From the IMG/VR virus record IMGVR_UViG_3300045988_154888, positions 1 to 58,947 of that record: DNA of 58,947 bases; one strand, written 5' to 3'. The notes below the pieces were generated by a model, which searched no databases, was not told the DNA's origin, and saw only the letters and a list, made by a program, of their open reading frames with translations. This DNA is from a virus. The translations under genes and the position numbers were made by a program. Shown one piece after another: positions 10,513-50,376 of the stretch; the stretch's first letter is position 1, and each line of letters opens with the position of its first letter.

Positions 10513-11760
10513 TTACAACCACCTCGCACGGAAAGACACAGCCACGGCGACGGTCGCGGCTGTTCCAGACAGAATTTTGATTTTCTTTTCACCGTTCACA
10601 GACAGCATTGGGAAATCACCTGATTTAAGCCATTTAATGCCATCCTCCGCGCCTTTAGCTATTGCCCCTGACAAACTATCCACCGTGACAGCCTGACCGT
10701 TAGATAGGCTAAAGCCATTCGAATACAGACGCATGGTTTTCAGAGCGTTTTTCTCGTCGTAATACTGGATGCGCAGGTCTGTTATGGCCGTTGCACTCTT
10801 GTTGGTGACAGAAACGGTCAGCGGCGTAGCATATCCAATGCCATTGGAGAGAAGCGAGGAAAGGTTGATTTCCTTTGCCGTTCCGGCGCTCAAAACAAGG
10901 TTCTCGGCGCTGGCGCTGACAGTTACGTCGCTTGCGAAGGGTTGCAGCGTCATTTTCAGCTTGATGGAGCCATTTTCCCAGTCCTTTCGGCTCAGGCTTT
11001 GTTTTCCATCGACCTCCGCCTCATAATAGCGGCTGACATCGCTGTCAAGGATGAGCTGCGCTCTGCCGGAATTGCCGAGCCATGCGGCTACGCTGTGGAG
11101 TTTCTTGGTGATTTCTTCCTCGCTCATCAGCCCGTCGCTGGATTGCTTCACGAAATACAGCGTGCCGGACATGGATTTTTCTTCGTACAGAATCCCTTCG
11201 CCGGAATCATACCGAAGCGTGCCGCTTTGCCCTGCAATCTCATACTTGTTGACCTTGGCGGTCGGCACTGCGTCCATGCTGTCCATTACGAACACACAGC
11301 CCATATCATTCAGGCAATGCTTCCCGGCGAACGTGAAGTTGTTCATTTCGCTCGTAGCCGTCGTGATAGGCTGGTTGTTGTAGACGTTGTACAGTCTATT
11401 GTCGGCGCAGGTGAACACGACGGTAATGCGTGCGGAAGCGCCGCTGCGCTCCGGCGTTGAAACCGAAGTGCAGCGGGCAAGATAGTAATGGGTCGTATCG
11501 CGTTCGGCAAACAATTTCGCAGTTCCGGCTTCATACAGCCATTTGCCGATGTCCTTGAGCTTTTTGTCAACGTCCTTGACGGTGCTGCCTCTTGCAAGGA
11601 TGGTAGCTTCGATGCTCCGCATGGTGGGAACCTCTACCGCCGCGAGCAATCTGCCGCGATAGGAAAGCTCCTTGCGCTCAAAATCGGCGAAGATTTTGTT
11701 CTTCCAGCTCACCACCTTGCAATGCCCAAAGGACGAAAGATGGACGTTTCCGAAAATCAT
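10513..11760 (-). CDS. Distal tail protein (Dit, Sipho_tail family)
   Basis: 415 aa, located between the tape measure and Tal. The N-terminus is Sipho_tail-like. Confidence 0.7.
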   Translation of the reverse strand: MIFGNVHLSSFGHCKVVSWKNKIFADFERKELSYRGRLLAAVEVPTMRSIEATILARGSTVKDVDKKLKDIGKWLYEAGTAKLFAERDTTHYYLARCTSVSTPERSGASARITVVFTCADNRLYNVYNNQPITTATSEMNNFTFAGKHCLNDMGCVFVMDSMDAVPTAKVNKYEIAGQSGTLRYDSGEGILYEEKSMSGTLYFVKQSSDGLMSEEEITKKLHSVAAWLGNSGRAQLILDSDVSRYYEAEVDGKQSLSRKDWENGSIKLKMTLQPFASDVTVSASAENLVLSAGTAKEINLSSLLSNGIGYATPLTVSVTNKSATAITDLRIQYYDEKNALKTMRLYSNGFSLSNGQAVTVDSLSGAIAKGAEDGIKWLKSGDFPMLSVNGEKKIKILSGTAATVAVAVSFRARWL

Positions 11761-14700
11761 TATGCAATCACCCCCTGAGCGCTTCTGCCAGCAACCGTCT
11801 GGCGGGACTTCTTGGAAATCGTCTTACTGACGGGATTGCTGACCTTTTCACCAACCTTATCGCCATCCATGATGACATCGCCGTCCAATGCGCCGGATTC
11901 AATCAGCCTGTCGGCAATCACGCGGCCAATGGCTTCGGCTTTTTCATACAGGGACTGTTTTTCATTGCTCGCCTCTGCGGTCTGCTTCGCGGTCTGCCGG
12001 ATGGTATCGCCAGACGTATAGACGGTTCCTCTGGACGGGTCGCCCACAAGGAAGGAATCATGCAGAGAATCGGTCACGTCGCCAGCGGCCTTTTCGATAA
12101 GCTGTACCTTTCCGAGAACGCCCTTGGCAAGACCGGCATCCCACATCCAGCCGATTTCTCTCTCGGCCACGGTAGACGGGCTGTGAATGCCCAGCGAGGA
12201 TTTCGCCGCGCTCAACGCAGACTGCGCCGCGCTTCTGGCGGCGGCTCTGATGACGGAGGAACCGGCGCGAATGCCGTTCGCAATGCCTTGTGCGAAATTG
12301 TAGCCAATGCTGCTGCCAGCACCGTTCGTCAGCACGGAAGAAGCTGCGGAAACGGCAGCTCTGGCGGCATTATCAGCTTCGCTCGCAAGAGAACTCTTGC
12401 ACGAAGTAACGGCGCTCTTGATGGCGTTGACAAACTTTGTGCCGATTTCCTTGCCGTTCGTTTCACTCATATTGAGAATGAATTTTTTCACAACAGCATC
12501 GGACACCTCAAGGGCTGCGGCCTCGTTCGGAGCCTGTCCATCAAGGATGGAGGTTTCCATGCCGGCCATCGCCTCATTGGTGGTATCGGTAAATTCGGTA
12601 ACAATTGGTTCTACCGATGTCACGGCAGCATCAACCAATCCAGAGGCAGAGGCCTCTACATCAGGGACCGCTTTGTCTATTCCCGGACTAGTAGCTGAAC
12701 CGATTTCCTCGCCAGCTTCCTTTTGCGTTGTAACCGCTGCATCAATGTCTGATTGAGAGGCTTTAGCCGCTTCAGTAATAGCTTCCGCTGCTTCCTCAAC
12801 GGTCATCGTGCCTTTTGATAAACCGTCTGCCACACCTTGCGGTAGTGCCATACCGAGTAGGTCACCAGCCTCAACTCCCATTGCTTTGAGCTGTATTTCC
12901 AATTCGGCTTGCCACCCCTTAATGCTTGCAAGAGACGTATCAAACACACTATCCCACATTACGCTTGCTGCTTCCGGAATCTCAGCATCCGTATACAGTA
13001 CATTAGCTATCTGCGCAAGCATTGTGCGAACTTCTGCTTCCGTCAGCTCTCCACTTCCATCAATAGTTTCGCTAAAATTTCGGTACAGATAATCTCCAAT
13101 TCCAAGAACACCTTCTCCGATAGCACCTAGAAGGTCTGCGCGATTCAATGCATCAACGATGCCCTGCGGCACAGCCATACCAGCCTCTTCGTACTTCGAG
13201 CGCAGCGATTCGAGTGCCTCAATATCTGGTTCCATGGCATTATAAATATTACGAGCGCTTTCAACGAGCTCAGGGGCACATACGTCTATGGCTCGAGCAA
13301 GCCCTCCAAATCCTTTGACAAGCTGGCTTTTCGTCTCATCATATATTATGCCCATGTCAGGTATTTCGAGGGTGTTTGTCATAGCATTTAAAGCATTGTT
13401 CAGTCCTTCTAATCGGATTGAGGATAGCTGGTCGTTGATTCCCTGTTCAATTGTCGCAATATACCTTCGTGTCTCATTTGTATCCAATTCAAGCGCAGCA
13501 GCAGCCTGATATGCCAGCGTAATCGTTCTTTCGCCTGCAGTTTCCGCTGTCTGAGCAGCGTTTTCAACTTGCTCGCGAACGGTTTTCATAATATTATTGA
13601 TGCTCTTTTTATCTAAAACACCGCCGACATTTTCTGTTTGAATCCTTAGCAACTCTCCCTTAAGCTCAACGTTGGCTATTGCCTGTGCAACAGCATCGCT
13701 GTATTTTTGAGCGAGCACTTGTATTTTTGCAGCTTCCTCAGCCGAGATGCTTCCATCTGCCATGGCTGATGTCAACGCTTTTCTGGCTTCTGTACCAGCC
13801 GCATCTGCTTCGGCTTGAATCGCCTCAAAAAAAGGCTTAAATAATTCTTCTGAAACCTTTTGATAGTTTTCACCTTGCTCGCCCATAACAGTTTTTAGTG
13901 TCAGGTCGACTTCATACTCCTGTGCTTCAATGAGGCCAAGCCCAGTCTCAATGATGCCTTCAACCGTTTCTTTGAAATTTTCAGATTCATTCTCATCCAA
14001 CTGAATTTTGAGTTTGGCATTAAGAACCTGATTGTTGAGTTTCTCGGACAGCGTTGTAAGGCTCTCTGCAAGCGCATCAGAGTTTTCTTTGGCCGTTGCC
14101 AGTTCCTGCATTTTTAATGTTTCCGGCATGGCAAAATTACTTACGATTTTCTGCACGTCATCAACACTCAAAACGGTGTTATCAAGCGATGTGATAGCAT
14201 CTCGCAGCCAATTACATAAATCTTTACCAGCATCTGCCAGCGTATTCAACGCAGGAGTTAACTTGTCACCGATTTCAATGCATAAGTTGTTGAACGAGTT
14301 TTTCAGCGTTTCGACATTACTTTCAGTAGTCCCATATCGCTGCTCAGCCTCGTTGGTCAGAGCATTATTCTCAGTCCATGCGGTGTTCGCGCGCTTAATT
14401 GAGCTATCCATCATATCAGAGGCATTCGTAGCGCGGAGGATGGAATCGCGGAGCCTAACTTCGGTGATGCCCATATCGCCAAGCGTCACAATGGCAGAAC
14501 CGCCAGACGATTCAATATTAGCCAATCCGTTGATAAAAGACGAAACTGCGGCAGAAGGGTCGTTTTCAACCAAATTAGCAAATTCTTCGGCGGTTGTTCC
14601 GGTTACTTCGGCGAAGTTCTTCAGGTTATCGGCGTTTTCACACAGCGTTTTCAGTTCTTCGGAGGTCATGCCTAGACCATGGGCAATGGATTTGAAACTT

Positions 14701-22448: not shown

Positions 22449-23585
22449 TCATTTGGCGAGCTTTACGGGCGGCAGCCTCTTCGCTGCGGCGCTCAGCTTC
22501 ACGCGCCCGCCCTCACGCCAGTATTTTCTCGGCAGCCAGTCCACGGATGCCGGAGTTTCGCTGTTATACTTCTCACGCAGAGCGCGTATATCAGCCTGAT
22601 AGCGCCGTACCTTGGCGTATGCCTGTCTTTCTTCCTCTGGGGTGGTCGCAACGGCCATGCGCCGCTTCCAGCGCCGGATGGAGCGCTCATACTGCCGCTG
22701 GTGCATTCGAGCGAAATAGCCGGACGAAGGTTCCTGCACAGCGCGGGGCGCGGAACGAACGTCGCGGGAAATACCCTCGTAATACGTTGACAGATGGTGC
22801 AGACAGCGCGGATGAAACACGCCGTCGTTTTCCGCTTCCTCCAAGGACGGATACTCGTGGCTTTCGCCGGAAACAGAAACGACAACGCCCTCCCACGCGA
22901 CACAGAGCGGACAGGCTCCTGCGTGGGAGGAAATGACGGCCAAATCAAAGCCGTATGACCTCATGGTTTCTGTGTATCCCTCGACAGTGGCGCGTTCAAT
23001 GGCTGTAAGGGTCGCCATTTCCGCATAGGTGGACATTTCCCAATGCCGCCCGGCCTTATCGACGAAGGACGAAATGCCACGGTCTGCGAAGTCCTGCAAT
23101 TCGTCTTTCACAGCGTCGCGCACGGTGATTGTGCCGGTCGCCACCCTCGCGGACGCACGACCGACAATATCAGCATAAGCGTCGTTCGCCTGACGGAGTA
23201 TCATCCTGTCCGCAGCGTCCATCGATGTATCCAGCTCGGACAGAATCGCCGCAACCTTCGCGCTGTTGGGGGAAAGGTGGGCAATACCAGCCCATTCCGT
23301 AAACCGCTGCGCCTCATTGACAAATGCCTGAGCGCTGCCGTTGTAGGCCGTATTGATAAATTCCTCGGACATTTTACGGCGCTGCTTGCTCATGCCGCCC
23401 ACAATGCCGGATAATTCCTTGCGGACGGCGGCGGTTTCGGCGTACTTCTTTTCTGTCCATCCGGGAACAGTCACGCCCTTCGCCAGACGGGCGGCTACGC
23501 GGCCAAGCATTTTTGCCTCGGCCTGTTCATAAAGCGTGAGCATTTCACCGGCAAGGCGCTCGTATGCGGAAACAGCAATCGGCAT
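22449..23585 (-). CDS. Minor head/head morphogenesis protein (SPP1 gp7 / Mu F-like)
   Basis: 378 aa, directly after the portal. Contains a HAGACPLC...HPRCLH Cys/His cluster typical of the family. Confidence 0.7.
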   Translation of the reverse strand: MPIAVSAYERLAGEMLTLYEQAEAKMLGRVAARLAKGVTVPGWTEKKYAETAAVRKELSGIVGGMSKQRRKMSEEFINTAYNGSAQAFVNEAQRFTEWAGIAHLSPNSAKVAAILSELDTSMDAADRMILRQANDAYADIVGRASARVATGTITVRDAVKDELQDFADRGISSFVDKAGRHWEMSTYAEMATLTAIERATVEGYTETMRSYGFDLAVISSHAGACPLCVAWEGVVVSVSGESHEYPSLEEAENDGVFHPRCLHHLSTYYEGISRDVRSAPRAVQEPSSGYFARMHQRQYERSIRRWKRRMAVATTPEEERQAYAKVRRYQADIRALREKYNSETPASVDWLPRKYWREGGRVKLSAAAKRLPPVKLAK

Positions 23586-25123
23586 TATTTGTCACCTTCC
23601 TCGCCTCCATCGCCCTCGCCGTTGCCGGCATCGGGTTTCTCGTAATCGCCCATGAACAGGTTCGGCTCATCCACAGCCTGACCGCTCTCGGTCTTGACGC
23701 GCTCCACTTCCTCCGCAATCTGCTTCTTCGTCCAGTCAGGGTGAAGCATCTGCACTTTCAGCTCGGTGGAGATTGCGGCAGCACGGTTGAGCAGTTCCAG
23801 CGCCGTGGACGTGGTGGAGATGTCATTGGCCATGTTGTCGGCGAAATGCACCTTGACGGCATCCGCGCCCTCGCTGCCCTTTCCGGGATAGAGCGCCGCA
23901 TCCAGATGGACCATCGCCGTCATAATTTGCTCAAGGGGCGATTTCCAGTAGGTCTGCTTCTTACCCTGCGTGTTGAAGGACTTCTTTTCGCGGATGTGAA
24001 GCGCCGTGCCGGACTGTGCGTTTCCGTCGATACCGATGCCGAAGGTCTGCGGGGCGTAGCCCGCGATGGTGACAATGTTCCGTATCAGTTCCGCACAGGT
24101 GGCTGCATGTTCGGCAGAACGGATAGCGAACTGGCTGGGCGTGATGGGATTGCTCCCAGAATGTTCAGGGTCGATGTCCAGTGCGACCAGCGTTTCCACG
24201 TCCTCATCGAATTCGTAGGTGTACTGGTTGTCCTTGAACATATCCGAAGCCTTGCGGCGCAGATACTCGGCAGGAACAATGAGCCGAGCCTTAGCCAGCC
24301 GCACATCGCGCATCCAGCTCGAATAGGTTTCATCCAGCGAATCCATCAGGCCGCGAAGGCCATCGCAGTCTGACCGCCCGTGGACGCTGGTTCTGTCCAT
24401 GCGGTTCGGCCTGATGTTCGGAATATGAACCGCCATCATATCCGCGATGGGCGTTTTCATCTCAGGCTCGAAGCCGAGCTGTTCCAGCATTCCCGTGCCA
24501 TCCTCCGTGCCAAGGTCGGAGGACGAGCCTTTGAACACGGCCATCGTGATTTTGCCGCGCTCGTAGCGCTCGTAAATGCGCCAGACGATATTTTTCTGCG
24601 TATCCCTTTTCAGGATGTCGAAAAAGTGGATGCACTTGAGCACGCCCAGCACATATTCAGGCCACGCGCAATCGCCCTGCGTGATGGTGAGAATAGGGTG
24701 GTCTACATCGTCCGGGCGGCTGCTCAGCTTGAAATACACATCGCCAAGGACGGCGCAAGTTTCGGCGGCCTCGTTCAAGAGGCCATGCACGTTGTTGAGC
24801 GAAATCAGTTCGTCGAGGCGACGCTGCTTATCGCTGCCATCGTCCTCGGTTTCCTCATCGAAACAGGTGAAGCGCGGTTCCTCGCTGAACAGGAGGTCGG
24901 AGGACGTTGCCGCAATATCGGCGGCAATAGGAACGTGGATTCTGCATTTCCCGTTCCGATACCAGAAGGAGCCTCCCTCTGCCGTGGCCGCAAGCTCTGC
25001 GCGGCCTCCGCTGTAAACGGCTGAATACTTGTGGTAATACCTCGCCTCGTAGGTTCGCAGCTCGTCCCACGCCTGTTTCGGAGTGAGGAACGCGGAAAGG
25101 CTGTTGTCCTGTACGGTTTCCAT
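23585..25123 (-). CDS. Portal protein (SPP1 gp6-like)
   Basis: About 512 aa, after terL. Start at ATG 25123, preceded by GGAGGTG. Confidence 0.8.
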   Translation of the reverse strand: METVQDNSLSAFLTPKQAWDELRTYEARYYHKYSAVYSGGRAELAATAEGGSFWYRNGKCRIHVPIAADIAATSSDLLFSEEPRFTCFDEETEDDGSDKQRRLDELISLNNVHGLLNEAAETCAVLGDVYFKLSSRPDDVDHPILTITQGDCAWPEYVLGVLKCIHFFDILKRDTQKNIVWRIYERYERGKITMAVFKGSSSDLGTEDGTGMLEQLGFEPEMKTPIADMMAVHIPNIRPNRMDRTSVHGRSDCDGLRGLMDSLDETYSSWMRDVRLAKARLIVPAEYLRRKASDMFKDNQYTYEFDEDVETLVALDIDPEHSGSNPITPSQFAIRSAEHAATCAELIRNIVTIAGYAPQTFGIGIDGNAQSGTALHIREKKSFNTQGKKQTYWKSPLEQIMTAMVHLDAALYPGKGSEGADAVKVHFADNMANDISTTSTALELLNRAAAISTELKVQMLHPDWTKKQIAEEVERVKTESGQAVDEPNLFMGDYEKPDAGNGEGDGGEEGDK

Positions 25124-25281
25124 CGTCCGCACCTCCAAATCACTAATAATTCAAAATAGCTCGCCTTGAATCGCGCACAGGCGCGAGAAAGCAACAAAGA
25201 AGCCCCCATGCGCGACAGGCGAGCGCCCCACGCAAGGAGTGAAACGCAAGGCCGAATCTTATAGATTCTTATCGAAGCAAG

Positions 25282-26592
25282 CTAAATAATGTATCTGCGA
25301 AGCGGATAGAAGGAATACTCGGCGCTGTCCAGACAGTCCACAGGGTAGGAACCGTCGTCCACGCGCACCCAGTCGCCCTTTGCGAATTCATCCTCTGACC
25401 ACGTTGCCATCTGGTAGGCCTCGTGCCACTTCGCCATGCCGGAGTTGATTTTGTATCGCCCCTGTGCCAGCAGCATGGAGGCCATTTCAATGCGTTCAAG
25501 GATGCCGTCCGACTTGTCAAAGCCGCGCACATCGAATCGGCTCATGCCTCGCCGGATAAGCTCGTTTTTCAGGCCGCGAGTGAACAACTTGGCGGCTGAA
25601 TCCACATAGATGGTGCCGATGCGCGGGTAAACTCGCGTCCACGGGATGAGCCATTCGACAATCATCTTGGCATAGAGCTGCTCGTCCATCTTGTTGTCGA
25701 TGCCCTGCTTGTGGTACATCCCGTCGATGTGGACGATTTTCTCAAAGCCCTGCGTAATGCCGGTGAGCGTGGCGACGGTCGCGTCCGTACCGCCAACGTC
25801 CACGCCGACCGTCAGCTCGGCAAAGTTCATGCGCCGGATTTTCTCTGGGGAAATGGCCACATCCTTGAAATTATAGGACGTATAGATGCGCCCGCTGGCG
25901 CTGGTGCGCTTGCCCAGAATATCCCGCTGATACCAGATGGATGCACGGTCGTATTTGGACAGCGCGTCTCGAAGGGCATCCTGCGGAATGGATTTATTGT
26001 CGAGGATGGTGAAGTGGCCATAATTATAGCCGTCGTTCTTCCCCTGCGCCTTGAGCGTGTCCTGATAATCCAGAAACTCGGCATAGAACCAATGAGACGG
26101 CGGCTTGGGGTTCAAATCGAAAAAGAGCTGGCGCTTACTGCTGGCCAGCGTTCTGTCGATGACCTCCTGAAAGAAGGTCTTATGGCACTCGTTCACCTCG
26201 GTAATATAGGCCGTACCGTAGGAATGGCCTTTGATGAGGCTCGCGCTGCGGGAATCGCCGCCGCCAGCGATGATGACAACCTTCTCGCCGGTGGACGAAT
26301 GGATGATGAGCGCGTCGCGCCCATTGTACTGCCCCATTTTGCAGCGCCCGGCAAAGAACCACTCAAGGCCGAAGCCGTCGCTGTCGATGATATTCATCTT
26401 CGCGGATGACTGCGACACGCCAGCGGCGAGGTGCAGCCTGTCCGGGTGCTTATCCAGCGCCATCGCCCAGCAGATGAGGTTGATGATGTTCTTGCCAGCG
26501 CGTTTACCGCCCTCGGCCACGTTGAGCCATGAACCCTTGGAGCGGCAGATGTACTCTGCCTGGCGCTGACTGAACGGCGCGTAGTTTATCAT
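25282..26592 (-). CDS. terL: Terminase large subunit (PBSX-type)
   Basis: 436 aa. Walker-A-like GGKRAGKN and a C-terminal nuclease-like region. Overlaps the terS stop. Confidence 0.85.
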   Translation of the reverse strand: MINYAPFSQRQAEYICRSKGSWLNVAEGGKRAGKNIINLICWAMALDKHPDRLHLAAGVSQSSAKMNIIDSDGFGLEWFFAGRCKMGQYNGRDALIIHSSTGEKVVIIAGGGDSRSASLIKGHSYGTAYITEVNECHKTFFQEVIDRTLASSKRQLFFDLNPKPPSHWFYAEFLDYQDTLKAQGKNDGYNYGHFTILDNKSIPQDALRDALSKYDRASIWYQRDILGKRTSASGRIYTSYNFKDVAISPEKIRRMNFAELTVGVDVGGTDATVATLTGITQGFEKIVHIDGMYHKQGIDNKMDEQLYAKMIVEWLIPWTRVYPRIGTIYVDSAAKLFTRGLKNELIRRGMSRFDVRGFDKSDGILERIEMASMLLAQGRYKINSGMAKWHEAYQMATWSEDEFAKGDWVRVDDGSYPVDCLDSAEYSFYPLRRYII

Positions 26593-26972
26593 GAGCCGTC
26601 ACCATCCTCGTCCGGCACAAGCACGTCCTCAATCTCAAGATTCGGCACAGGGTTGTTGATGAGGTCTGCAAGGGACTGAACCTGCTCGTTTGCCCGCTTG
26701 GCAGTCTCGTCGTCGCTGTTGTCGGGATAATCCGACTGGCCGAGAATGTTTTTTCCCAAAAAGATGGCCATTGCCGCCGATTTTTCTGCAAGCCTGAACT
26801 GCATTCGCCGGAGAGATATTTTGCCGCCAGACTTCTTTTCGGCGTAAACTTGGGAATATTCTTTCCCATACGTCCGCTTGCACCATCGTGTAAGCGTTTT
26901 ATGGTCAACCTCAAGAAAATCGCATATTTCCTGCTGTGTGCATTGCAGCGCGCACAGCTTTTCGAACTCCAT
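26589..26972 (-). CDS. terS: Terminase small subunit (HTH)
   Basis: 127 aa. HTH segment CTQQEICDFLEVDHKTLTRW. 4-nt overlap with terL. Confidence 0.6.
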   Translation of the reverse strand: MEFEKLCALQCTQQEICDFLEVDHKTLTRWCKRTYGKEYSQVYAEKKSGGKISLRRMQFRLAEKSAAMAIFLGKNILGQSDYPDNSDDETAKRANEQVQSLADLINNPVPNLEIEDVLVPDEDGDGS

Positions 26973-27060
26973 CTTCTTGATTTCCTTCTTTGGCCGACCG
27001 GCCTTTCCGCCTGCCGTAAAGCATCCCTCCTTTCTGTAAGACTGTCTCTGTAAGTAGTAT

Positions 27061-27090
27061 ATTATATATTATTATATATACTGACTACAG
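27061..27090. promoter_or_regulatory. AT-rich motif copy R2 upstream of terS (candidate late promoter/regulator site)
   Basis: The minus strand reads tatatataataatatataatatactactta, about 55 nt upstream of the terS RBS. It shares its core with R1 and R3. Confidence 0.45.
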
Positions 27091-27114: not shown

Positions 27115-28080
27115 TCAGATGAAGAACGGGTCTTTCGTACCCTGCGCAAGCATTTTCAGGTAGCCATTTGGCGCTGTAAGGCGGCAGGGAACATCGCAGG
27201 TACTTTTATCGGTTTTGGCCGCAGCGTGCTTTTCCAGAATGTCCTCATCCATCACATGCCCGATGATTTGATAGGGCTTATGGCAGCAATGCATGATATT
27301 CCCTTTTTCGTTCATGGCTATCTGCGCCCAATGTGCGAGACAGGAGGAACAGAAATCCTCAATCATGCGCCACTTGAAATTCAGCACGACGCGCTTATCC
27401 TTTTCGGCGATGGCCTGAATGAGCGCGATGCACTTTTTCGCGTTTCCCTTGGCTTCCTCGGAGGCATAAAAGCTGCCAGCCGTACTCTCCATCGGGCGAA
27501 GCGCCATATAGTCAAAGGGCAAATCCTTATTGGCCTCATAGAACGGCAGGATGTCCTCAAACCGTGCGACCACCTTCTGTACGCCAAGGGACGTAAGCGG
27601 CGCGTTTTTCTTTCGCCATGCATCGTACTGGATGATATTCTCCCTGACCTTCCGATACGCTCTCACGCCGCGGCAGGCCTCGTAGCTGTCCTCGTCCCAG
27701 CCGTCAAGGCTCACCTTGAGATAATCGGGCGCACAGTATTTCAAGACGTTCAAGTTGGTGTTTACGCCATAATGCAGATGATTTTCTTCCAGCCACGCCG
27801 CAATCGCCTCAAAGTCGGGAGTAATCATCGGTTCTCCGCCGCCCGTCAGGATAAAGCCGAGAACGCCCAACTCTTTCAGCCGTGTGGCGTACCGCACGAA
27901 TTCATCCCTCGTCATGGCGTAAGCGCCCTTGTCCAGCTCCCAGCGGTGATAAACGCAATAGGGGCAGTTATTGTTGCAGTAGTTATTCAGGAACACATCA
28001 GCCGTAATCGGTCGATGGTCTCCGGCGACGCGCTCTGGATGAAACATGAGCTTGCTGCCGTTGATGTTGCTCTCCATCAT
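27115..28080 (-). CDS. Radical SAM enzyme with Cys-rich (SPASM/twitch-like) C-terminus
   Basis: CNNNCPYC (CxxxCxxC) and GGGEPM motifs. C-terminal cysteines CSSC...HCCH...CDVPC. Start at 28080, after the upstream stop. Confidence 0.8.
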   Translation of the reverse strand: MMESNINGSKLMFHPERVAGDHRPITADVFLNNYCNNNCPYCVYHRWELDKGAYAMTRDEFVRYATRLKELGVLGFILTGGGEPMITPDFEAIAAWLEENHLHYGVNTNLNVLKYCAPDYLKVSLDGWDEDSYEACRGVRAYRKVRENIIQYDAWRKKNAPLTSLGVQKVVARFEDILPFYEANKDLPFDYMALRPMESTAGSFYASEEAKGNAKKCIALIQAIAEKDKRVVLNFKWRMIEDFCSSCLAHWAQIAMNEKGNIMHCCHKPYQIIGHVMDEDILEKHAAAKTDKSTCDVPCRLTAPNGYLKMLAQGTKDPFFI

Positions 28081-28085
28081 TCGTG

Positions 28086-28943
28086 TTACACTTCCTTTCG
28101 CCAGCGCTGGTTCAGAATCTTCGGAACGCAGCACGTCCAGTTGATTTTGTGGTGAATGCGCTTATGCGCGGAATTGAGCATTTCCACCCTGACGGCGCTG
28201 GGCATGGACATGACGGAATAAAAAGACTTGAGGAAGGTTCCACCGTCCGCGTATGCTTCCGACATCCCCCCCTTGGTGCCCTGCGTGGCCGCCTGAATGA
28301 TGGCGCAATCGGTAATGGACATAATCAGCGCCCCTCGGCTGCCCAGCGTGGTGTACATGGTCACGTCCTCGTTCATCGTGCCGACAAACTGGAACGGCCT
28401 GTCCGTGCGGCAGAAAAAGGTGTTCATCGCCTTGCGAATCACCTTCTCGCCAAACCGCTTGCCGTTTACGCCGCCGATGAAATCACCAGCCTGACAAAAG
28501 GCGACGGTGAGCGCGTCCGAGCTTTCCAGAAATTCAATCATGTCCGTGAACAGCCGGTCAAGCTGCGTACACTTCTTCGCCTTGAGATGACCGTTCTCAA
28601 TAAAACGATGATGGAGGCCGGTATAATCGTCATCCAGCATCAGGAAGTACTTGAGGCCAAGGTCACGGGCGATGTAGAAGGACTGATTGCGGGCGTAAAT
28701 AATGGCGCGGTGCTCATGGAAGGTATCTGCGGTGTCCGTCCAATCGTCCACGGCCTGTTTGTCGAAGATGACAACGTGTTCCCGGCCATAGCGCCTGATA
28801 TACTCGTCTGCCTGTTCGTCCTCGTTATCCAGCACCATATACCATTTGCCGGTATAATTTCCAGCCTGAAGAACGCCCTTCATGGTAACAACCTTATCGG
28901 CGCGTCCGTGCGTGAGAATCAAAACCGCGAAATCATCACGCAT
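28086..28943 (-). CDS. Putative GT-A-type glycosyltransferase-like protein (possibly TET-associated/GREB1-like GT family)
   Basis: 285 aa. N-terminal beta-strand FAVLILTHGR and an FLMLDDDY (DxD) motif. The family assignment is from memory only. Confidence 0.4.
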   Translation of the reverse strand: MRDDFAVLILTHGRADKVVTMKGVLQAGNYTGKWYMVLDNEDEQADEYIRRYGREHVVIFDKQAVDDWTDTADTFHEHRAIIYARNQSFYIARDLGLKYFLMLDDDYTGLHHRFIENGHLKAKKCTQLDRLFTDMIEFLESSDALTVAFCQAGDFIGGVNGKRFGEKVIRKAMNTFFCRTDRPFQFVGTMNEDVTMYTTLGSRGALIMSITDCAIIQAATQGTKGGMSEAYADGGTFLKSFYSVMSMPSAVRVEMLNSAHKRIHHKINWTCCVPKILNQRWRKEV

Positions 28944-29676
28944 CGTCTTCGTCCTCCATCATCGCCATGATGTCGTCTGACAGCTTGGCATAGCCGTTCG
29001 CAATGGCATCGTCCACATCGATGATGACCAGCGCGTTTTTCTCCATCAGGCGCTGCATTTCCGGCGTGGCATGGGCGTAATACTCGGCAATATTGCGATA
29101 ATTAAAAACATTATGGCGGCGGGAAGCCTGAATCAGAAACTGCTTTTCCTCGTCGGTGATGCCCTCCGCGCTTTCAATCTCCGCGATGAGCGCGTCAGCC
29201 TTGTCAGAATCCAGCATATCGGCAAAGTTCGGTTCATCCCCCGTAATCTCGTACTGGGGAATATTGACCTTGAGGGTGTACTTGTCATCGTCCTGCTCGT
29301 CATCCTCTAATTCAAAACCGAACTGCTCCATGTCGATATTCAGGATACGCGCAAGCTCTTGGTCGAGCTTCTCATCGTCCCAATCGGCAAATTCGCCGGT
29401 CTTGTTGTCGGCAAGGCGATAAGCCGCCGCCTGTTCGTCCGAGAGGCTTTCGGCAACCACGCATGGAAACTCATCCCAGCCGAGCTTTTTCGCGGCCTTA
29501 TAGCGCGTGTGACCGGCGATGATGACATGATTGCGGTCAACGATGATGGGGGATTGCGGGCCAAAGGCGCTCAGAGAAGCCGCAACCTTGTCAACGGCAT
29601 CGTCGTTTTTCCGTGGGTTATTCTCATAGGGCTTGATGTCCTTGAGAGGCAGATACACCATTTGCTGTTTCTGCAT
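28936..29676 (-). CDS. ParB-like nuclease/DNA-binding domain protein
   Basis: N-terminal ParB/Srx motifs (LKDIKPYENNPRKND, IIVDRNHVIIAGHTRYKAAKKLG) and an acidic C-terminal half. Confidence 0.75.
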   Translation of the reverse strand: MQKQQMVYLPLKDIKPYENNPRKNDDAVDKVAASLSAFGPQSPIIVDRNHVIIAGHTRYKAAKKLGWDEFPCVVAESLSDEQAAAYRLADNKTGEFADWDDEKLDQELARILNIDMEQFGFELEDDEQDDDKYTLKVNIPQYEITGDEPNFADMLDSDKADALIAEIESAEGITDEEKQFLIQASRRHNVFNYRNIAEYYAHATPEMQRLMEKNALVIIDVDDAIANGYAKLSDDIMAMMEDEDDA

Positions 29677-29700: not shown

Positions 29701-30114
29701 TCAGGCGTTCAACTCGATAAAAGCGTCCGTGAGCTGCTTGACGGTGAAAGCGCCGTGCGGCTTTCGCCATTCGCAGTCGGTATCGTCCGCTTTGCGCTTA
29801 TAATAAATTTCTCTGACGGAGCAATCTTTGAGGTGGACGTCCTGATTCGCATCCTCCACACCATGCTCGGCAATGATGGCGATAGCGTCCTTGCCGCTGG
29901 CTCTGAAATCGTCCACAAAGCGCTGCAGCAGCAGACGCTGGCCGGTCGGCACATCCTTGGACTTTCCCTTGACCTCGACGAAGATTCTTGCCCTGTCCTT
30001 GTACTCAATCGTCGCGTCGATGTCGGTCGGCGTGATATTGCCGTACTGCATTCCATCGAACAGCAGAAGCTGACGGGCACGCGCCGGGTGCCTGTATACG
30101 CCTCGTTCCTCCAA
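29701..30114 (-). CDS. PD-(D/E)xK nuclease-like protein (VRR-NUC-like)
   Basis: 137 aa with a TTG start after AGAGGTGGG. Motif DIDATIEYKDRARIFVEVKGK...TGQ. Confidence 0.45.
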   Translation of the reverse strand: MEERGVYRHPARARQLLLFDGMQYGNITPTDIDATIEYKDRARIFVEVKGKSKDVPTGQRLLLQRFVDDFRASGKDAIAIIAEHGVEDANQDVHLKDCSVREIYYKRKADDTDCEWRKPHGAFTVKQLTDAFIELNA

Positions 30115-30137: not shown

Positions 30138-30168
30138 AGAAAAAGCAGACAGATGAATTTCTGTCTGC
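30138..30168 (-). terminator. Rho-independent terminator (downstream of the TA pair, just upstream of gene 30114)
   Basis: gcagacag / ctgtctgc stem with an 8-nt loop, followed on the minus strand by TTTTTCTTT. Confidence 0.7.
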
Positions 30169-30306
30169 TGAATTCGGTTATTCTAATTATACATCCGAAA
30201 TTTTGAATTGAAAAGGGGGCAAATCCGGTGCAACGGGGGGTGCAAATGCGAAATCATGAATATTCTGCAAAAAGCCGCGCAGGATTTCCCCCGCGCAGCC
30301 TTTTCT

Positions 30307-30627
30307 TCACTTGTCCAGCAGGTCGCTGTGCGTTCCCGTTCGGGTCAGGGTCAGAACCAGCACATTTTCTTCAATACGGTAAATCAGCAGCCAATCCGGC
30401 AGAACGTGACATTCCCGATGCCCAATCCAGTTGCCTGACAGGCTGTGGTCGCGGTTCTTTTCCGGCAGCGCTTCACCCTTGGCAAGCAGGGTGACAATTT
30501 CCGCGAGAGCTTCCATTTTCAGGCCGCGCTTCTTCGCCAGCTTGTAGTCCTTCCGAAACTGCGCGGTGACTGCAAGGTCGTACTTCGTGCACTCGTTGTC
30601 GAGGCCATCCAGAAAGCTCTTACTCAT
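30307..30627 (-). CDS. yafQ: Type II toxin, YafQ/RelE family mRNA interferase
   Basis: 106 aa. Motif DHSLSGNWIGHRECHVLPDWLLIYRIE is YafQ-like. Confidence 0.75.
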   Translation of the reverse strand: MSKSFLDGLDNECTKYDLAVTAQFRKDYKLAKKRGLKMEALAEIVTLLAKGEALPEKNRDHSLSGNWIGHRECHVLPDWLLIYRIEENVLVLTLTRTGTHSDLLDK

Positions 30628-30911
30628 TCCTCGTCATCCTCCAAATCGGAGAACAGCTCCTTGACGCTGTGGTAGCGCTTTGCATTGGGGTCTTTTGCAA
30701 TCCTCTCTGCTTCCAGCAGCGCAGCCATCGTTTCCCGATTGGGGCGGTCATCCAGCCGAACATCGAACGGGAAGCCGCCAGCACGAATGGACTTGCGCAG
30801 GAATACATTGATGGCAGTAGAGAGGTTCATGCCCAAAGCTCCGTAAATCCCTTCGCATTCCCGCTTTACGTCGGAATCCATCCGAACAGTGACGTTAGTG
30901 CTTGTGCTCAT
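30624..30911 (-). CDS. dinJ: Type II antitoxin, RelB/DinJ family
   Basis: 95 aa. VTVRMDSDVKRECEGIYGALGMNLSTAINVFL is DinJ-like. 4-nt overlap with the toxin gene. Confidence 0.7.
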   Translation of the reverse strand: MSTSTNVTVRMDSDVKRECEGIYGALGMNLSTAINVFLRKSIRAGGFPFDVRLDDRPNRETMAALLEAERIAKDPNAKRYHSVKELFSDLEDDEE

Positions 30912-30988: not shown

Positions 30989-31492
30989 TTATTCGGCCAT
31001 CTGATAGATTTTCTCCATCGCACGCTGTTTGAGGCGCTTCAAGGAATCCTTTGACGTTTCCTCCTGAAAAGCAGTCTTGAACTTGCAGACGACCTCTTTC
31101 CAGTATTCCCCGTCGATGACCTGATGTTCCACAATCCAGCGTTCCCGCTCGGGCAAACCGTTCAGCCATGCCGAAACGAACAGCACGGTGAAATACCTTT
31201 GTTCATGCTCCTGCCGGGTTTCTTTCAGCTCGGCCTGCATTTCCAGAATATCATCCGGCACCCAGCCAGAGGCGAGCATGATACCCAGCTTCTCGGTTGG
31301 GTTTCCCACGGTCGTTCCGTGCGGCATACCAGACAACTGCTGCGGCCTGACGGCGGTCACGTCCTCATCCATGGTCGCCATCGCCTGTCGGATGGCCTTT
31401 TCAAGCTGGCTGATTTCCGCTTCCAGATGACCGCAACGTCCAACCTCGAAACGGTACGCTTTCAGCATTTCGTCAACCTTTTCGCGTGTCAT
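30989..31492 (-). CDS. Sigma-70 region-4-like phage transcriptional regulator (ArpU/RinA/DUF1492-type late activator candidate)
   Basis: 167 aa. C-terminal LPERERWIVEHQVIDGEYWKEV...LKRLKQRAMEKI resembles sigma region 4. Confidence 0.5.
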   Translation of the reverse strand: MTREKVDEMLKAYRFEVGRCGHLEAEISQLEKAIRQAMATMDEDVTAVRPQQLSGMPHGTTVGNPTEKLGIMLASGWVPDDILEMQAELKETRQEHEQRYFTVLFVSAWLNGLPERERWIVEHQVIDGEYWKEVVCKFKTAFQEETSKDSLKRLKQRAMEKIYQMAE

Positions 31493-33370: not shown

Positions 33371-33621
33371 TATCGGTAGTTCCTTCCCGTGCGCCTGTCC
33401 CTGACCTCTACGCGGGCGGTCAGTTCAAACCCGGCGAGGTCGATGAGGGTCTTGATGGACTTAATCAGACGGTTACAGCGCAAGTCGGCCTCGTCCAATT
33501 CGAGCTGCTTGTCCCGCATGACGTTGGTGAGCGCGTCATGCGCGGTCAAATCCATATAGCCCTCGGTATTGCGCAGCGGAACGCGCATTTCGTCGCTCAT
33601 CCTCGGATACACCTCCCGCAA
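33370..33621 (-). CDS. Hypothetical protein
   Basis: 83-aa ORF on the operon strand. Confidence 0.4.
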   Translation of the reverse strand: MREVYPRMSDEMRVPLRNTEGYMDLTAHDALTNVMRDKQLELDEADLRCNRLIKSIKTLIDLAGFELTARVEVRDRRTGRNYR

Positions 33622-34142
33622 GATTCAAGCTCGTGACATACGCCGCCGTGCCACAGGCAATTTGGAACCAGAAACTCGGCGATTTCAGGCATGACCTTAG
33701 CCACTTCATCGCACATCATCCCGGCGACCTCCCGCGTCTTTGCGCTGGCCTTGCTGCACAGCCGCTTATTGGCGACGGTCATGAGTTCCTCCGCATTGCA
33801 GAAGAAAATCATATCCACAGGAGTATTTCGGGGCGCTTCGTCGCCGTTCATGCGGTCTTGCCGGTCGTTGCGCAGGCTGGAAACGAACGGGACGGCGTGG
33901 ACATGGCGGGCAAAGTGCGTCGCCGTGTTCGAGGGAATGTTCTCAATCAAAAACGCGAAATTCAGCACGCGCACGGGTGAATGGCGGGCATTGAGAACAT
34001 CCCGCAGGAGCTTCGAGGACGGAGCGGAGACAGGCGCTTCGGTCTTTCCCATCGTAACCCAGATGCAGCGCTTGAACAGCATCAGCTCCCGTTCCTCCGG
34101 CCAATAGATGAGCGTTACCTTGATTTCGGGCTTATTTTCCAC
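33597..34142 (-). CDS. Divergent ThyX-like (flavin-dependent thymidylate synthase fold) protein
   Basis: GTG start at 34142, 6 nt after AAAGGAGGG. HSPVRVLNFAFLIENIPSNTATHFARHVHAVPFVSSLRNDR aligns with the ThyX HETPFEH..F.F....RHRxxS...S.RY region, but the RHR motif is degenerate. Confidence 0.45.
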   Translation of the reverse strand: MENKPEIKVTLIYWPEERELMLFKRCIWVTMGKTEAPVSAPSSKLLRDVLNARHSPVRVLNFAFLIENIPSNTATHFARHVHAVPFVSSLRNDRQDRMNGDEAPRNTPVDMIFFCNAEELMTVANKRLCSKASAKTREVAGMMCDEVAKVMPEIAEFLVPNCLWHGGVCHELESCGRCIRG

Positions 34143-34143
34143 G

Positions 34144-34353
34144 TCAAGCCCTCCTTTCGTATCGCTGAATGGTGCCGTCATTAAATTCGACGGTGATATG
34201 CGGCGGGTACTTCGCACAGACCTTTCGCGGTTTGAACTGTACGGCCTTGATGCGTTTGGGCGTAACATGCTGCTTTTCGCATTCGTCGCACTCTTTTTTA
34301 TCGGCGTAAAGCGTGCCGCAAAACTCGCACTTGTACTGCGTAATTTCCTGCAT
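34144..34353 (-). CDS. Small zinc-ribbon protein
   Basis: 69 aa with CEFCG...CDECEKQH. Confidence 0.5.
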   Translation of the reverse strand: MQEITQYKCEFCGTLYADKKECDECEKQHVTPKRIKAVQFKPRKVCAKYPPHITVEFNDGTIQRYERRA

Positions 34354-45576: not shown

Positions 45577-46041
45577 TTACGGGGCCTTTGGGGTGTCTGC
45601 TCCCTCCAAGGCGAGCAGGTTGTTCACGCGCTGCGTACTTTGAAGCAGCTCGGTAACAGCTTTCGAAAACCTTTGTGTAAGGGCTGCATCGTCAAGCTGC
45701 CCGTTCGCTCCATCCCGCATGACGGCGGCCTCAATATCCCGGATTTCAGCAACCACGCCATACAGCGACATGATTGAACCCTTGAGGTCGAAGGCTGGCT
45801 GTGCAGGATGAACGCGCCCATAGCTCATGGGGTATTCCGTCCGCATCCAGTCGTACCACTTCGAAGCGTCTCCGAGCGCGAGGCAGATTTCATACATCAC
45901 GTCCGGGTTCGGCTTGAGCTTGCCGTTTTCGTAGCGGTAAATGGTCGTGGTGTCGCAGGAAATGCGTTCCGCGAGGTCTGCGGCGCTTATTCCCTGCGTT
46001 TCTCGCCACTTTTTGAGGTCAATCCCTGCGAACACCGCCAT
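45577..46041 (-). CDS. XRE-family HTH regulator
   Basis: LKKWRETQGISAADLAERISCDTTTIYRYENGK. Confidence 0.7.
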   Translation of the reverse strand: MAVFAGIDLKKWRETQGISAADLAERISCDTTTIYRYENGKLKPNPDVMYEICLALGDASKWYDWMRTEYPMSYGRVHPAQPAFDLKGSIMSLYGVVAEIRDIEAAVMRDGANGQLDDAALTQRFSKAVTELLQSTQRVNNLLALEGADTPKAP

Positions 46042-46042
46042 T

Positions 46043-46489
46043 TCACGCGCCCCGACTTTCGTTTAGAATAACCTCAGATAGATTGAACGCGGCACCTTCC
46101 AAGTGCTCCATGTAACGCACCAAGGTGTTGCGCCACATCTCTCGCACCCACTCGCCGACGCTTGAATAGCCAAAGGCGAGGATGGCCTTACGGAGCGCGG
46201 CGGCTTCCTCGGCAGAGAGCCACTTGCCAAGCTCCGAATCCTGCGGCTGGCTGGCCGCTGCCTCATCGGAAAACAAGGAAGGGAGGTCAACGTCTGTGGC
46301 ATCATACAAATCAGCCGGGGAACATCCGAGCCGGGAGCACATTTCTTTCAAGCACTCTGGTGTCGGAAGCGCCTTGCCGTTGGCGATATATGAAACAATC
46401 GCGGGGTTGCAGTCCTCAACACAGTCTGCAAGAGCTTTTGCCGACATACCGCGTTCAGCGAGAACTGCTTTGATTCTGTTCCGTGCCAT
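46043..46489 (-). CDS. XRE-family HTH regulator
   Basis: IKAVLAERGMSAKALADCVEDCNPAIVSYIANGK. Confidence 0.65.
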   Translation of the reverse strand: MARNRIKAVLAERGMSAKALADCVEDCNPAIVSYIANGKALPTPECLKEMCSRLGCSPADLYDATDVDLPSLFSDEAAASQPQDSELGKWLSAEEAAALRKAILAFGYSSVGEWVREMWRNTLVRYMEHLEGAAFNLSEVILNESRGA

Positions 46490-46501
46490 GCGCGGACCTC
46501 C

Positions 46502-46738
46502 TTATTCCGAAAAGACTTTTTCGCGCAGGAAGTTGTGCGCATCGCAATTGAGGAAATCGGCAATTCGCAGGGCAATGTCAACGTTCGGCATCTGCAATCC
46601 CTTCTCGATGCGATTGTAGAACGTCTCGGAACAACCGGCAGCGTCCGCGACTTCCTTCTGCGTCTTGTTACTGACACGGCGGGCTTTCTCAAGCCAAGTT
46701 CTGTCGCGCACAATCTTGCGCACCTCGCTGGTAGCCAT
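46502..46738 (-). CDS. cro: Cro-like HTH regulator
   Basis: Start at MATSEV (46738). LEKARRVSNKTQKEVADAAGCSETFYNRIEKG. Divergent from the repressor gene. Confidence 0.7.
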   Translation of the reverse strand: MATSEVRKIVRDRTWLEKARRVSNKTQKEVADAAGCSETFYNRIEKGLQMPNVDIALRIADFLNCDAHNFLREKVFSE

Positions 46739-46920
46739 CGTAAACTCTCCTTTCTGCAAAGCTAAACTATTGTTTGGTTGCTTAATTTGTGGTAGAATGA
46801 AGATGGCTACTTGCATTCAGCCGGAAATCAAGCTGTACAAGAGGCTGGAAAGCCTGAACGGATGATGCTTCGCGTTTCAAAATCTCGTATGCGATTGCAC
46901 ATCTCGTATCTTGTAGCTTG

Positions 46921-50191: not shown

Positions 50192-50201
50192 TTTCGCTCT
50201 C

Positions 50202-50223
50202 TGTGGTAAAAATGTGGTAGTAG
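50202..50223 (+). repeat. attP arm-type direct repeat, copy 1
   Basis: tgtggtaaaaatgtggtagtag compared with 50484-50506 tgtggtaaatgtgtggtagtaag. The two copies flank the tRNA-like core. Confidence 0.55.
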
Positions 50224-50319
50224 CTCAAGCGGACGAATAGAAACAGCAGGTTTCCAGACTTTTATTCAATGGTATGAGCCGTTTTTCAGGCTTGTGTGCA
50301 TAAAACGCACATACTGCGT

Positions 50320-50370: not shown

Positions 50371-50376
50371 GCGAAA

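Follow-up and report, generated by a model that had tools for sequence, protein, structure and literature searches.

A ParB, TAGT-family glycosyltransferase and radical SAM gene cassette upstream of the terminase genes of a gut prophage, a candidate DNA glycosylation module

Glycosylation of phage DNA is known only on hydroxymethyl- or hydroxy-pyrimidines made by dedicated enzymes. The Pfam family TAGT (TET-associated glycosyltransferase, PF20691), defined on DNA-modifying phage enzymes, includes the T2/T6 beta-glucosyl-HMC-alpha-glucosyltransferase, which adds glucose to glucosyl-hmC in DNA (PMC13216743; PMC13390438). T-even phages make hmC at the nucleotide level and use TAGT to add a second glucose on top of an alpha- or beta-GT product, whilst 'solitary' TAGTs, found in 288 of 753 phages, were left explicitly unexplained (PMC13216743). 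A second related group is the post-replicative 5mYOX (phage TET/JBP) hypermodification clusters, including the ParB-dependent thymine dioxygenases (PMC8256090; bioRxiv 10.1101/2023.12.21.572611; PMC13229309), in which ParB proteins lacking an HTH have been shown to activate a phage DNA dioxygenase on dsDNA, and in which glycosyltransferase (31%), ParB (27%) and terminase (19%) genes are the commonest neighbours (PMC13229309). ParB domains are also found fused to phage DNA methyltransferases (phrog_498; PADLOC MTase_II PDLC03229; PMC12704722), fusions which are enriched in prophages. Radical SAM enzymes that act on sugars or nucleosides include DesII, the TDP-4-amino-4,6-dideoxy-D-glucose deaminase, as well as BlsE, viperin and MoaA. 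None of the 5mYOX papers mentions radical SAM, and a literature search found nothing relevant that linked radical SAM, glycosyltransferase and ParB in phages, or that characterized ynaK, an E. coli gene of the pair described below.

The window analyzed here is the whole 58,947-nt stretch of IMG/VR virus record IMGVR_UViG_3300045988_154888 (positions 1 to 58,947). A first-pass annotation had placed a ParB-like, a GT-A-like and a radical SAM gene directly upstream of the terminase genes and proposed a candidate DNA or virion modification module that matched no described pathway. The observation was confirmed, with all three ORFs lying on the minus strand where they had been placed:

28936..29676, minus strand, acidic ParB-CTPase-fold protein without an HTH domain (246 aa)
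28086..28943, minus strand, TAGT-family GT-A glycosyltransferase (285 aa), the presumed catalytic core
27115..28080, minus strand, radical SAM enzyme with a twitch/SPASM-like C-terminal cysteine cluster (321 aa)
26589..26972, minus strand, terminase small subunit, directly downstream of the cassette (context, not a component)
25282..26592, minus strand, terminase large subunit (context)

The genes are tightly packed, with the ParB stop codon overlapping the TAGT start by 8 nt, and 5 nt separating the TAGT stop from the radical SAM ATG, with AGGAAG just upstream. The mechanically called radical SAM ORF runs back to a GTG at 28134, but all homologues start at the ATG at 28080. No near-identical DNA was found in GenBank phages.

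The glycosyltransferase is a confident member of TAGT, scoring 149.3 bits against a cut-off of 27.5 (E 1.8e-43) and covering profile positions 1–205 of 205, and it also matches phrog_842 (E 5e-64). The DDD motif (D104–D106) is invariant in 27 homologues, and an AF2 model (pLDDT 73.9) has a GT-A fold, for which the best BFVD hits are TAGT-domain proteins (4e-27) and the best PDB hits are the GT-A enzymes K4CP and SpsA (7e-5). The search returned 2631 relatives (clusters at 90% identity) with E ≤ 1e-5. The protein therefore shares its Pfam and PHROG family with the T2/T6 enzyme, but differs in that this phage is temperate, that the enzyme is coupled to ParB, and that no hmC pathway and no alpha- or beta-GT is seen. 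Among 47 window ORFs scanned with Pfam, no TET/JBP, C5-methyltransferase or ThyA-type hydroxymethylase was reported, nor was any annotated in the complete genome of phage phi jlb1, which carries the ParB–TAGT pair. The genomic association that gives the family its name is thus not seen among the ORFs scanned, although it is not universal among TAGTs (PMC13216743).

The ParB protein matches Pfam ParB_N (PF02195; 38.2 bits, cut-off 26.3, E 1.5e-9), contains the box II/III-like motifs GHTRYKAA and LADNK, and matches phrog_620 over its full length (E 3.8e-61). Only residues 2–95 match solved ParB/Noc/Spo0J structures, and nothing beyond residue ~121 does. The N-domain is closest to the ParB domains fused to phage DNA methyltransferases (phrog_498, 2e-40; PADLOC PDLC03229, 1e-22), but here the ParB is a separate polypeptide with its own conserved acidic C-terminal domain, and its partner is a glycosyltransferase. 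It does not fit a canonical chromosome or plasmid partition ParB, as it lacks a recognizable central HTH domain, scores 41.8 bits against 58.45 for TIGR00180, has a C-terminal half with a net charge of −17, and has no ParA hit among the 47 window ORFs scanned. The whole protein is extremely acidic (pI 4.27, net charge −30), and 35 homologues have a median pI of 4.43. The C-terminal motifs YTxKxxIPQYEPTG and RHxVFNYxxIAEYYAH...SALVIID are conserved from a Haloarcula virus to E. coli. The architecture resembles that of the ParB in ParB-dependent 5mYOX systems (N-terminal NTP-binding domain plus a C-terminal domain), but no cognate dioxygenase was found among the ORFs scanned.

These properties of the ParB raise the possibility that the cassette glycosylates a protein rather than DNA, with candidates being ParB itself (at the invariant PQYEPTG motif), the terminase or a virion protein, and with the radical SAM enzyme modifying the sugar or the peptide. 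The product would then work in packaging, in virion surface chemistry, or as an injected DNA-mimic anti-restriction protein. In its favor, the ParB partner family is uniformly very acidic (median net charge −26), lacks an HTH, and has a strictly conserved Tyr/Thr-containing motif after an acidic linker. In one related locus, L012, a radical SAM homologue (52% identical) and a GT2-like glycosyltransferase sit inside the head-gene block, between MuF and the major capsid gene. Weak sequence and fold hits of the radical SAM protein include peptide-modifying SPASM enzymes. Glycogenin, a self-glucosylating GT-A, is among the TAGT fold hits, but only at the level of the general fold, and virion glycosylation occurs in mycobacteriophages. 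Against it stand the DNA-modifying definition of TAGT, the grouping of the ParB N-domain with those fused to DNA methyltransferases, and the occurrence of the radical SAM enzyme with other glycosyltransferases and no ParB, meaning that ParB is not its obligatory substrate. No protein-glycosylation signature stands behind this alternative, and we consider it unlikely, though the strongest of the alternatives.

The radical SAM protein matches Pfam Radical_SAM (PF04055; 48.4 bits, cut-off 29.5, E 1.5e-12), and the motif C35-x3-C39-x2-C42 is invariant in alignments of 37 and of 19 sequences. Five C-terminal cysteines (C247, C265, C266, C295, C299) are also invariant, in a pattern C247-x12-G260-x4-C265-C266 ... 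C295-x3-C299 that fits the SPASM/twitch motif (CX9-15GX4C ... further Cys), although no SPASM Pfam hit was obtained and N_Twi_rSAM scores only 28 bits against a cut-off of 170, so that binding of an auxiliary Fe-S cluster is inferred from sequence and fold alone. NCBIfam and PDB sequence searches gave only generic N-terminal matches far below the cut-offs, and no curated subfamily was reached. In an AF2 model (pLDDT 89.4), the best solved fold is DesII (E 1.2e-12, TM 0.63), with SuiB, anSME, MoaA, BlsE and viperin also high, whilst spore photoproduct lyase is absent from the top 50. Similarity to DesII is a resemblance and not membership, as identity is only 15–18%, the sequence hit is weak (E 0.07), and the protein is shorter than DesII and has a five-cysteine twitch-like tail. 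The fold and the weak family hits fit peptide-modifying SPASM enzymes (SuiB, anSME, PqqE) as well as sugar enzymes. A prokaryotic viperin was ruled out, as PADLOC pVip scores 27.8 bits over residues 30–114 only and viperins lack the C-terminal cysteine tail. The family is small and discrete, with 67 representatives at E ≤ 1e-30 among 1.84 billion. A sister radical SAM family of ~350 aa in environmental viral contigs does not sit next to ParB or TAGT by tblastn and was set aside, and P0370, an apparent TAGT::rSAM fusion that lacks the CX3CX2C region and looks like a deletion product, was not used as evidence.

In related loci, a ParB hit lies beside 78 of 78 distinct TAGTs, and the ParB–TAGT pair nearly always sits directly upstream of the terminase genes, behind late-regulator-like genes. 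The terminase families, however, differ. In this phage the small subunit matches phrog_309 and phrog_606, and the large subunit Pfam Terminase_3 and Terminase_6N and phrog_2, whereas across related loci the cassette precedes terS of at least four PHROG families (phrog_57, 51, 309, 606), plus a protein in the terS position that matches phrog_2412, and terL of phrog_979, 2, 3717, 15 and 9. The same pair occurs in cultured Lactobacillus, E. coli (ynaK), Nocardia, Porphyromonas and Haloarcula viruses, and thus across bacterial phyla and in an archaeal virus. The radical SAM gene is optional, accompanying 51 of the 78 TAGTs, but 60 of 63 distinct loci with this gene also hold ParB and TAGT, and two of the other three pair it with a different GT-A glycosyltransferase. 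An AT-rich imperfect palindrome lies between the cassette and terS (27048–27090), but nothing comparable recurs in 76 related loci, giving no support for a parS- or pac-like site. The position in front of the terminase could simply reflect the start of the late operon. The head of the late operon is also an insertion hot spot, and with unrelated terminase families downstream it could be supposed that ParB is a packaging or partition factor and the other two genes are unrelated morons. That the three are functionally unrelated is very unlikely given the counts above, the overlapping or nearly abutting reading frames, the divergence of the three proteins that tracks across clades, and the persistence of the pair across bacterial phyla and into an archaeal virus.

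Other elements of the first-pass annotation held up less well. The gene described as PD-(D/E)xK nuclease-like (29701–30114) matches no family in Pfam, PHROGs, NCBIfam or PADLOC and is conserved only in the two closest relatives. The divergent ThyX-like protein matches Thy1 only over its last ~50 residues, and the orphan adenine methylase (56175–57866) lies beyond the integrase (48947–50191), next to ArdC, and is therefore probably outside the prophage. A nucleotide-level pathway in which MazG removes the canonical dNTP and the ThyX-like protein makes a modified pyrimidine, as this context suggested, has in its favor that a MazG-like pyrophosphatase (phrog_3301, 5e-35) and the ThyX-like gene lie 2.4–4.6 kb upstream, and that MazG-like genes recur a few genes upstream in several related loci. 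The ThyX-like gene is, however, missing from the upstream flank examined in the next-closest relative, which has 86–95% identical ParB and TAGT, and is absent from nearly all other loci, phi jlb1 has neither gene annotated, and no kinase or hydroxymethylase was found. This pathway is therefore very doubtful, and MazG, the ThyX-like gene, the 137-aa gene and the methylase, which do not travel with the cassette, are not part of the module.

The radical SAM enzyme appears to follow glycosyltransferases rather than ParB. Besides the 60 loci with TAGT, related loci L116 and L121 pair it with GT8, and L012 and L261 with a GT2-like glycosyltransferase. Genes for sugar nucleotides accompany some variants, although this window encodes none of its own. 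L116 has NDP-heptose-type genes (GmhA-like, GHMP kinase and NTP-transferase-HAD), and a further locus, L238, has a UDP-GlcNAc 4,6-dehydratase (2gn4, 1e-94) and a DegT sugar aminotransferase (3e-67) beside ParB–rSAM–GT, which are the enzymes that would make a DesII-type substrate, as DesII acts on an NDP-4-amino-4,6-dideoxyhexose. Tandem or extended TAGTs in some loci fit oligosaccharide building. These findings suggest that the radical SAM enzyme is a sugar or nucleotide-sugar tailoring enzyme, and not a base-modifying one of the thymidine-hypermodification type.

An alternative is that the radical SAM enzyme is an oxygen-independent stand-in for the 5mYOX dioxygenases, oxidizing the C5-methyl of thymine (or 5mC) in DNA with the help of ParB, with water supplying the oxygen and the auxiliary cluster taking the second electron, so that TAGT would glycosylate the resulting 5hmU/5hmC in an anaerobic base-J-like pathway. 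The gene does occupy the slot next to ParB and a glycosyltransferase in front of the terminase, a twitch-type auxiliary cluster suits two-electron oxidations, and no other source of an acceptor was seen. It was also found only in phages and prophages of strict anaerobes (Blautia, Muriventricola, Clostridium, Lachnospiraceae, Phascolarctobacterium) and in one GenBank phage record, from human feces, and O2-dependent dioxygenases cannot work in such hosts. However, 27 of 78 ParB–TAGT pairs lack the radical SAM gene, including those of gut phages and cultured phages of E. coli, Lactobacillus, Porphyromonas and Nocardia, and no 5mYOX-like gene stands out among the conserved neighbors read; the transferase therefore does not need this gene. 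Homologues also pair with GT8 or GT2-like enzymes without ParB, next to NDP-sugar genes, the nearest folds are sugar or nucleotide enzymes rather than the DNA-acting spore photoproduct lyase, and ParB-dependent 5mYOXs go with kinases and amino-acid transferases rather than glycosyltransferases (PMC13229309). We therefore regard this reading as improbable.

The interpretation that this is a candidate DNA or virion modification module outside any described pathway is supported. The best reading, to which we give a probability of roughly 0.45, is of a late-gene cassette that glycosylates the phage's own DNA after replication, around the time of packaging. In this view TAGT, as a GT-A, DXD-type nucleotide-sugar transferase, would transfer the sugar, and the ParB-fold protein would act as its partner or activator on DNA, by analogy with the ParB-dependent thymine dioxygenases and the ParB-methyltransferase fusions, despite its acidity and lack of a recognizable DNA-binding domain. 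The radical SAM protein would use its SAM cluster and an auxiliary twitch-type Fe-S cluster to remodel the sugar by oxidation, deamination, deoxygenation or epimerization, acting either on the NDP-sugar donor, as DesII does, or on the glycan once attached, and the DNA would then carry a non-standard sugar that sugar-specific host nucleases or glycosylases do not recognize. Whilst the family memberships, folds, conserved motifs, gene coupling, synteny and host range are results of the analysis, the transfer of sugar to DNA, the role of ParB, the radical SAM chemistry and the anti-defense purpose are all inferred, with no step shown biochemically and no nucleoside data for any member. As neither this phage nor phi jlb1 has an annotated route to the known acceptors of TAGT-type enzymes (5hmC, 5hmU, glucosyl-hmC), a new acceptor must be assumed. 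A more speculative version, unlikely but compatible with the evidence, is that ParB–TAGT writes a sugar directly onto canonical DNA without a hydroxymethyl- or hydroxy-pyrimidine precursor, and that in anaerobe phages the radical SAM enzyme supplies or matures an unusual deoxy, keto or amino sugar, which would be a precursor-independent kind of DNA glycosylation.

The cassette is very common in human-gut prophages, and its core pair sits in 889–1580 of 5426 complete E. coli genomes (as ynaK plus an unnamed gene), or roughly a sixth to a quarter. It is built around a transferase of the DNA-glycosylating family, yet no enzyme that makes the usual precursor was found with it. Finding its product would answer what 'solitary' TAGTs do, a question raised in 2026 (PMC13216743), and would show what HTH-less ParBs do for DNA-modifying enzymes, as well as bringing a radical SAM, oxygen-free step into DNA hypermodification chemistry. 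Unrecognized bulky DNA adducts in gut phages affect restriction and CRISPR sensitivity, sequencing signals and phage engineering.

The window is a temperate siphovirus-like prophage transcribed mostly on the minus strand, with its integrase at 48947-50191 and HTH regulators at 45577-46816. Replication genes (DnaB, RusA and an SMC-like ATPase) lie at 37-45 kb and structural genes at 0-25 kb, and the sequence is 99% identical to IMG/VR contig 3300045988_150752. The gene order around the cassette is given below.

Genes of the cassette region, in order along the minus strand.
30989-31492 (-), late-regulator-like gene
30307-30911 (-), two small overlapping genes (95 and 106 aa)
29701-30114 (-), ORF with no family match (137 aa)
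28936-29676 (-), ParB (246 aa)
28086-28943 (-), glycosyltransferase (285 aa)
27115-28080 (-), radical SAM enzyme (321 aa)
26589-26972 (-), terS
25282-26592 (-), terL
23585-25138 (-), portal

The stop of ParB overlaps the start of the glycosyltransferase by 8 nt, and the radical SAM ATG follows the glycosyltransferase stop by 5 nt, with AGGAAG upstream. The radical SAM ORF as listed starts at a GTG at 28134, but 36 homologues all begin at the position of the ATG at 28080. Read by eye, the two small genes at 30307-30911, between the late regulator and the cassette, resemble a RelB/DinJ-YafQ/RelE toxin-antitoxin pair. Just upstream of the 137-aa gene, at 30144-30214 on the minus strand, a promoter-like site (TTTTCA-17-TATAAT, 10 of 12 matches) is followed by a terminator-like hairpin with a T-run, and this could be the regulated start of the late operon, although these are consensus matches only. 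An AT-rich imperfect palindrome with 15-nt arms and a 13-nt spacer (27048-27090) lies in the 142-nt gap between the radical SAM stop and the terS start, where local GC is 0.42 against 0.55 for the locus, but it is not conserved in 76 related loci.

Elsewhere in the window (3251-5256, minus strand) there is a diversity-generating retroelement, with a reverse transcriptase (3251-4342; RVT_1 1.4e-13), a 113-nt template repeat (4457-4569) and a variable repeat (5144-5256) at the end of an upstream gene near the tail genes; 12 of the 13 mismatches between the repeats fall on template adenines. Beyond the integrase, at 50200-58900, lie ArdC/MPTase (52610-53527), a DUF5131 gene resembling radical SAM mobile pair A (51684-52565, also matching PADLOC PDC-M41B) and a DUF4942 methyltransferase (56175-57866), which look like a second mobile element rather than phage genes.

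The middle protein of the cassette is a full-length member of Pfam PF20691, TAGT (149 bits against a cut-off of 27.5), and of phrog_842, with an invariant DDD motif. An AlphaFold2 model (pLDDT 73.9) is a GT-A fold, the best viral matches of which are TAGT-domain proteins and the best solved matches K4CP and SpsA. TAGT is the family of the T2/T6 beta-glucosyl-HMC-alpha-glucosyltransferase, which adds a second glucose to glucosyl-hmC in DNA (PMC13216743; PMC13390438).

The ParB protein has a ParB-CTPase N-domain (residues 2-95) resembling Noc/Spo0J, with no HTH or other match beyond it. This N-domain is closest to the ParB domains fused to phage DNA methyltransferases (phrog_498, 2e-40; PADLOC MTase_II, 1e-22). 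The protein is very acidic, with a pI of 4.27 and a net charge of -30, of which the linker carries -13 and the C-terminal domain -17, and the same holds for 35 homologues, with a median charge of -26 and a range of -16 to -53. The conserved, helical C-terminal half carries the motifs YTxKxxIPQYEPTG, RHxVFNYxxIAEYYAH and SALVIID, which are conserved from Haloarcula virus HHTV-2 to E. coli and Nocardia phages. This is odd for a presumed DNA-loading factor, and could point to a DNA mimic or to a modification site. Glycosylation of a protein rather than DNA, with the acidic ParB and its invariant PQYEPTG motif or virion proteins as the target, cannot be excluded.

The radical SAM enzyme has an invariant CX3CX2C motif plus five invariant C-terminal cysteines in a twitch/SPASM-like pattern, but it reaches no curated subfamily threshold. 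Its model (pLDDT 89.4) is closest to DesII (E 1.2e-12), followed by SuiB, anSME, MoaA, BlsE and viperins.

Searches with TAGT in IMG/VR returned 80 loci, every one of which had ParB immediately upstream. Across all loci collected at that stage there were 78 distinct TAGT sequences, and all 78 have ParB, whilst 51 have the radical SAM gene and 27 do not. The cassette sits directly upstream of the terminase genes, which belong to at least four annotated terS families (phrog_57, 51, 309 and 606), plus a protein in the terS position matching the unnamed phrog_2412, and to five terL families. It lies downstream of diverse small proteins that look like late regulators, judged by position and by reading of the sequences only. 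The pair was also found without the radical SAM gene in cultured viruses, as listed below.

Cultured viruses carrying ParB and TAGT but no radical SAM gene, by host.
Lactobacillus gasseri: phi jlb1
L. delbrueckii: c5, phiLdb, Ld17, LL-Ku, PMBT4
E. coli / Salmonella: lambdoid phages
Nocardia: NTR1
Porphyromonas: phage005
Haloarcula: HHTV-2 (here the pair lies about 3 kb upstream of terL)

In E. coli the ParB gene is named ynaK. The pair matches 1580 of 5426 complete genomes, 889 of them at 80% coverage or more, and a literature search found no functional study.

Starting instead from the radical SAM gene, in IMG/VR, GTDB genomes and metagenomes, 63 distinct loci had enough flank to judge.

Genomic context of the radical SAM gene in 63 distinct loci.
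ParB-TAGT-rSAM: 54
ParB-rSAM-TAGT: 4
ParB and TAGT on the opposite strand (divergent): 2
GT8 partner: 1
GT2-like partner: 1
Solitary: 1

The named hosts are strict anaerobes, namely Blautia, Muriventricola aceti, Clostridium, Lachnospiraceae, Clostridia MAGs and Phascolarctobacterium, and only one GenBank phage record, from human faeces, has the gene. Cultured lysogens carrying the full trio include Blautia sp. MSJ-19, Muriventricola aceti H5_61 and Clostridium sp. OF09-36. The family is small and discrete, with 67 representatives at E<=1e-30 among 1.84 billion.

All of the exceptions point to sugar chemistry. In locus L116, from a rumen MAG, a GT8 glycosyltransferase overlaps a 45%-identical radical SAM gene, and the pair lies next to, and on the opposite strand from, a SIS isomerase, a GHMP kinase and an NTP-transferase-HAD fusion (L116 3099-7954), a complete gene set of the NDP-heptose pathway (GmhA/HddA/GmhB/HddC). 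The GT8-rSAM pair is repeated in a second locus, L121 (877-2717). This chromosomal pair in rumen and gut bacteria is a non-phage use of the same radical SAM family. In two further loci, L012 and L261, the gene sits with a GT2-like transferase. In L012 (5372-9275) it is embedded in the head-gene block, in the order portal, MuF, radical SAM, 212-aa ORF, major capsid, GT2-like GT, which raises the possibility of virion rather than DNA glycosylation in that lineage.

More distant cassettes, L238 (3819-10260) and L237 (2839-8857), have a short ParB with a different C-terminal domain (…NYIVLYFDN..DW…), divergent GT-A genes, the radical SAM gene and terminase genes. The order in L238 is terS-like, short ParB, radical SAM (44% identical), a GT-A-like protein with an FLMMDDD motif, a PseB-like UDP-GlcNAc 4,6-dehydratase (PDB 2gn4, 1e-94) and a DegT-type sugar aminotransferase (3e-67). 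A 4,6-dehydratase plus an aminotransferase make NDP-4-amino-4,6-dideoxyhexoses, which is the substrate class of DesII in desosamine biosynthesis, and DesII is the best structural match of the radical SAM enzyme. The order in L237 is short ParB, two GT-A-like genes, radical SAM, terS, terL. Additionally, some loci have tandem or N-terminally extended TAGTs.

That the radical SAM enzyme is an oxygen-free substitute for 5mYOX is an attractive alternative, given the restriction to anaerobes, the position next to ParB and a GT, and the putative auxiliary cluster. It is weakened, however, because 27 of 78 pairs, including those of gut phages, lack the gene, and because the gene follows GTs of three families into ParB-free, sugar-gene contexts.

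The weak point of a DNA glycosylation model is the acceptor. Among the 47 ORFs of the window that were scanned there is no TET/JBP, C5-MTase or ThyA-type enzyme, and the complete 38-kb genome of phi jlb1 has no annotated candidate. Its one unannotated gap (1.4 kb, 11350-12746), just upstream of ParB, holds no ORF longer than 73 aa, and the short translations look tRNA-like by eye. Either canonical DNA is glycosylated at a new position, or the target is not DNA. A nucleotide-level pathway involving MazG and ThyX is not supported. The ThyX-like gene (33597-34268) encodes a 223-aa basic protein that matches ThyX only over its last ~50 residues, carries RHVH...S where the ThyX RHR...S motif would be, and is absent from the flank examined of the next-closest relative.

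ParB-GT-terminase neighbourhoods and TAGT itself are already known from bioinformatics and, for 5mYOX-linked clusters, from experiments, and solitary TAGTs have been flagged as unexplained (PMC13216743). No paper linking a radical SAM enzyme to phage DNA glycosylation was found in the literature searched, and the key papers do not mention radical SAM.

That DNA is the acceptor is inferred from three things, namely the TAGT family; the type of ParB domain, together with published evidence that HTH-less ParBs activate a phage DNA dioxygenase on dsDNA (PMC13229309); and the late, terminase-linked position, for which Burke et al. cite Aravind's idea that ParB directs modification enzymes during packaging (PMC8256090). 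The cassette is widespread and experimentally tractable. It is concluded that ParB and TAGT form a self-sufficient core and that the radical SAM enzyme is an accessory tied to the glycosyltransferase, which most likely remodels the donor NDP-sugar or the attached sugar.
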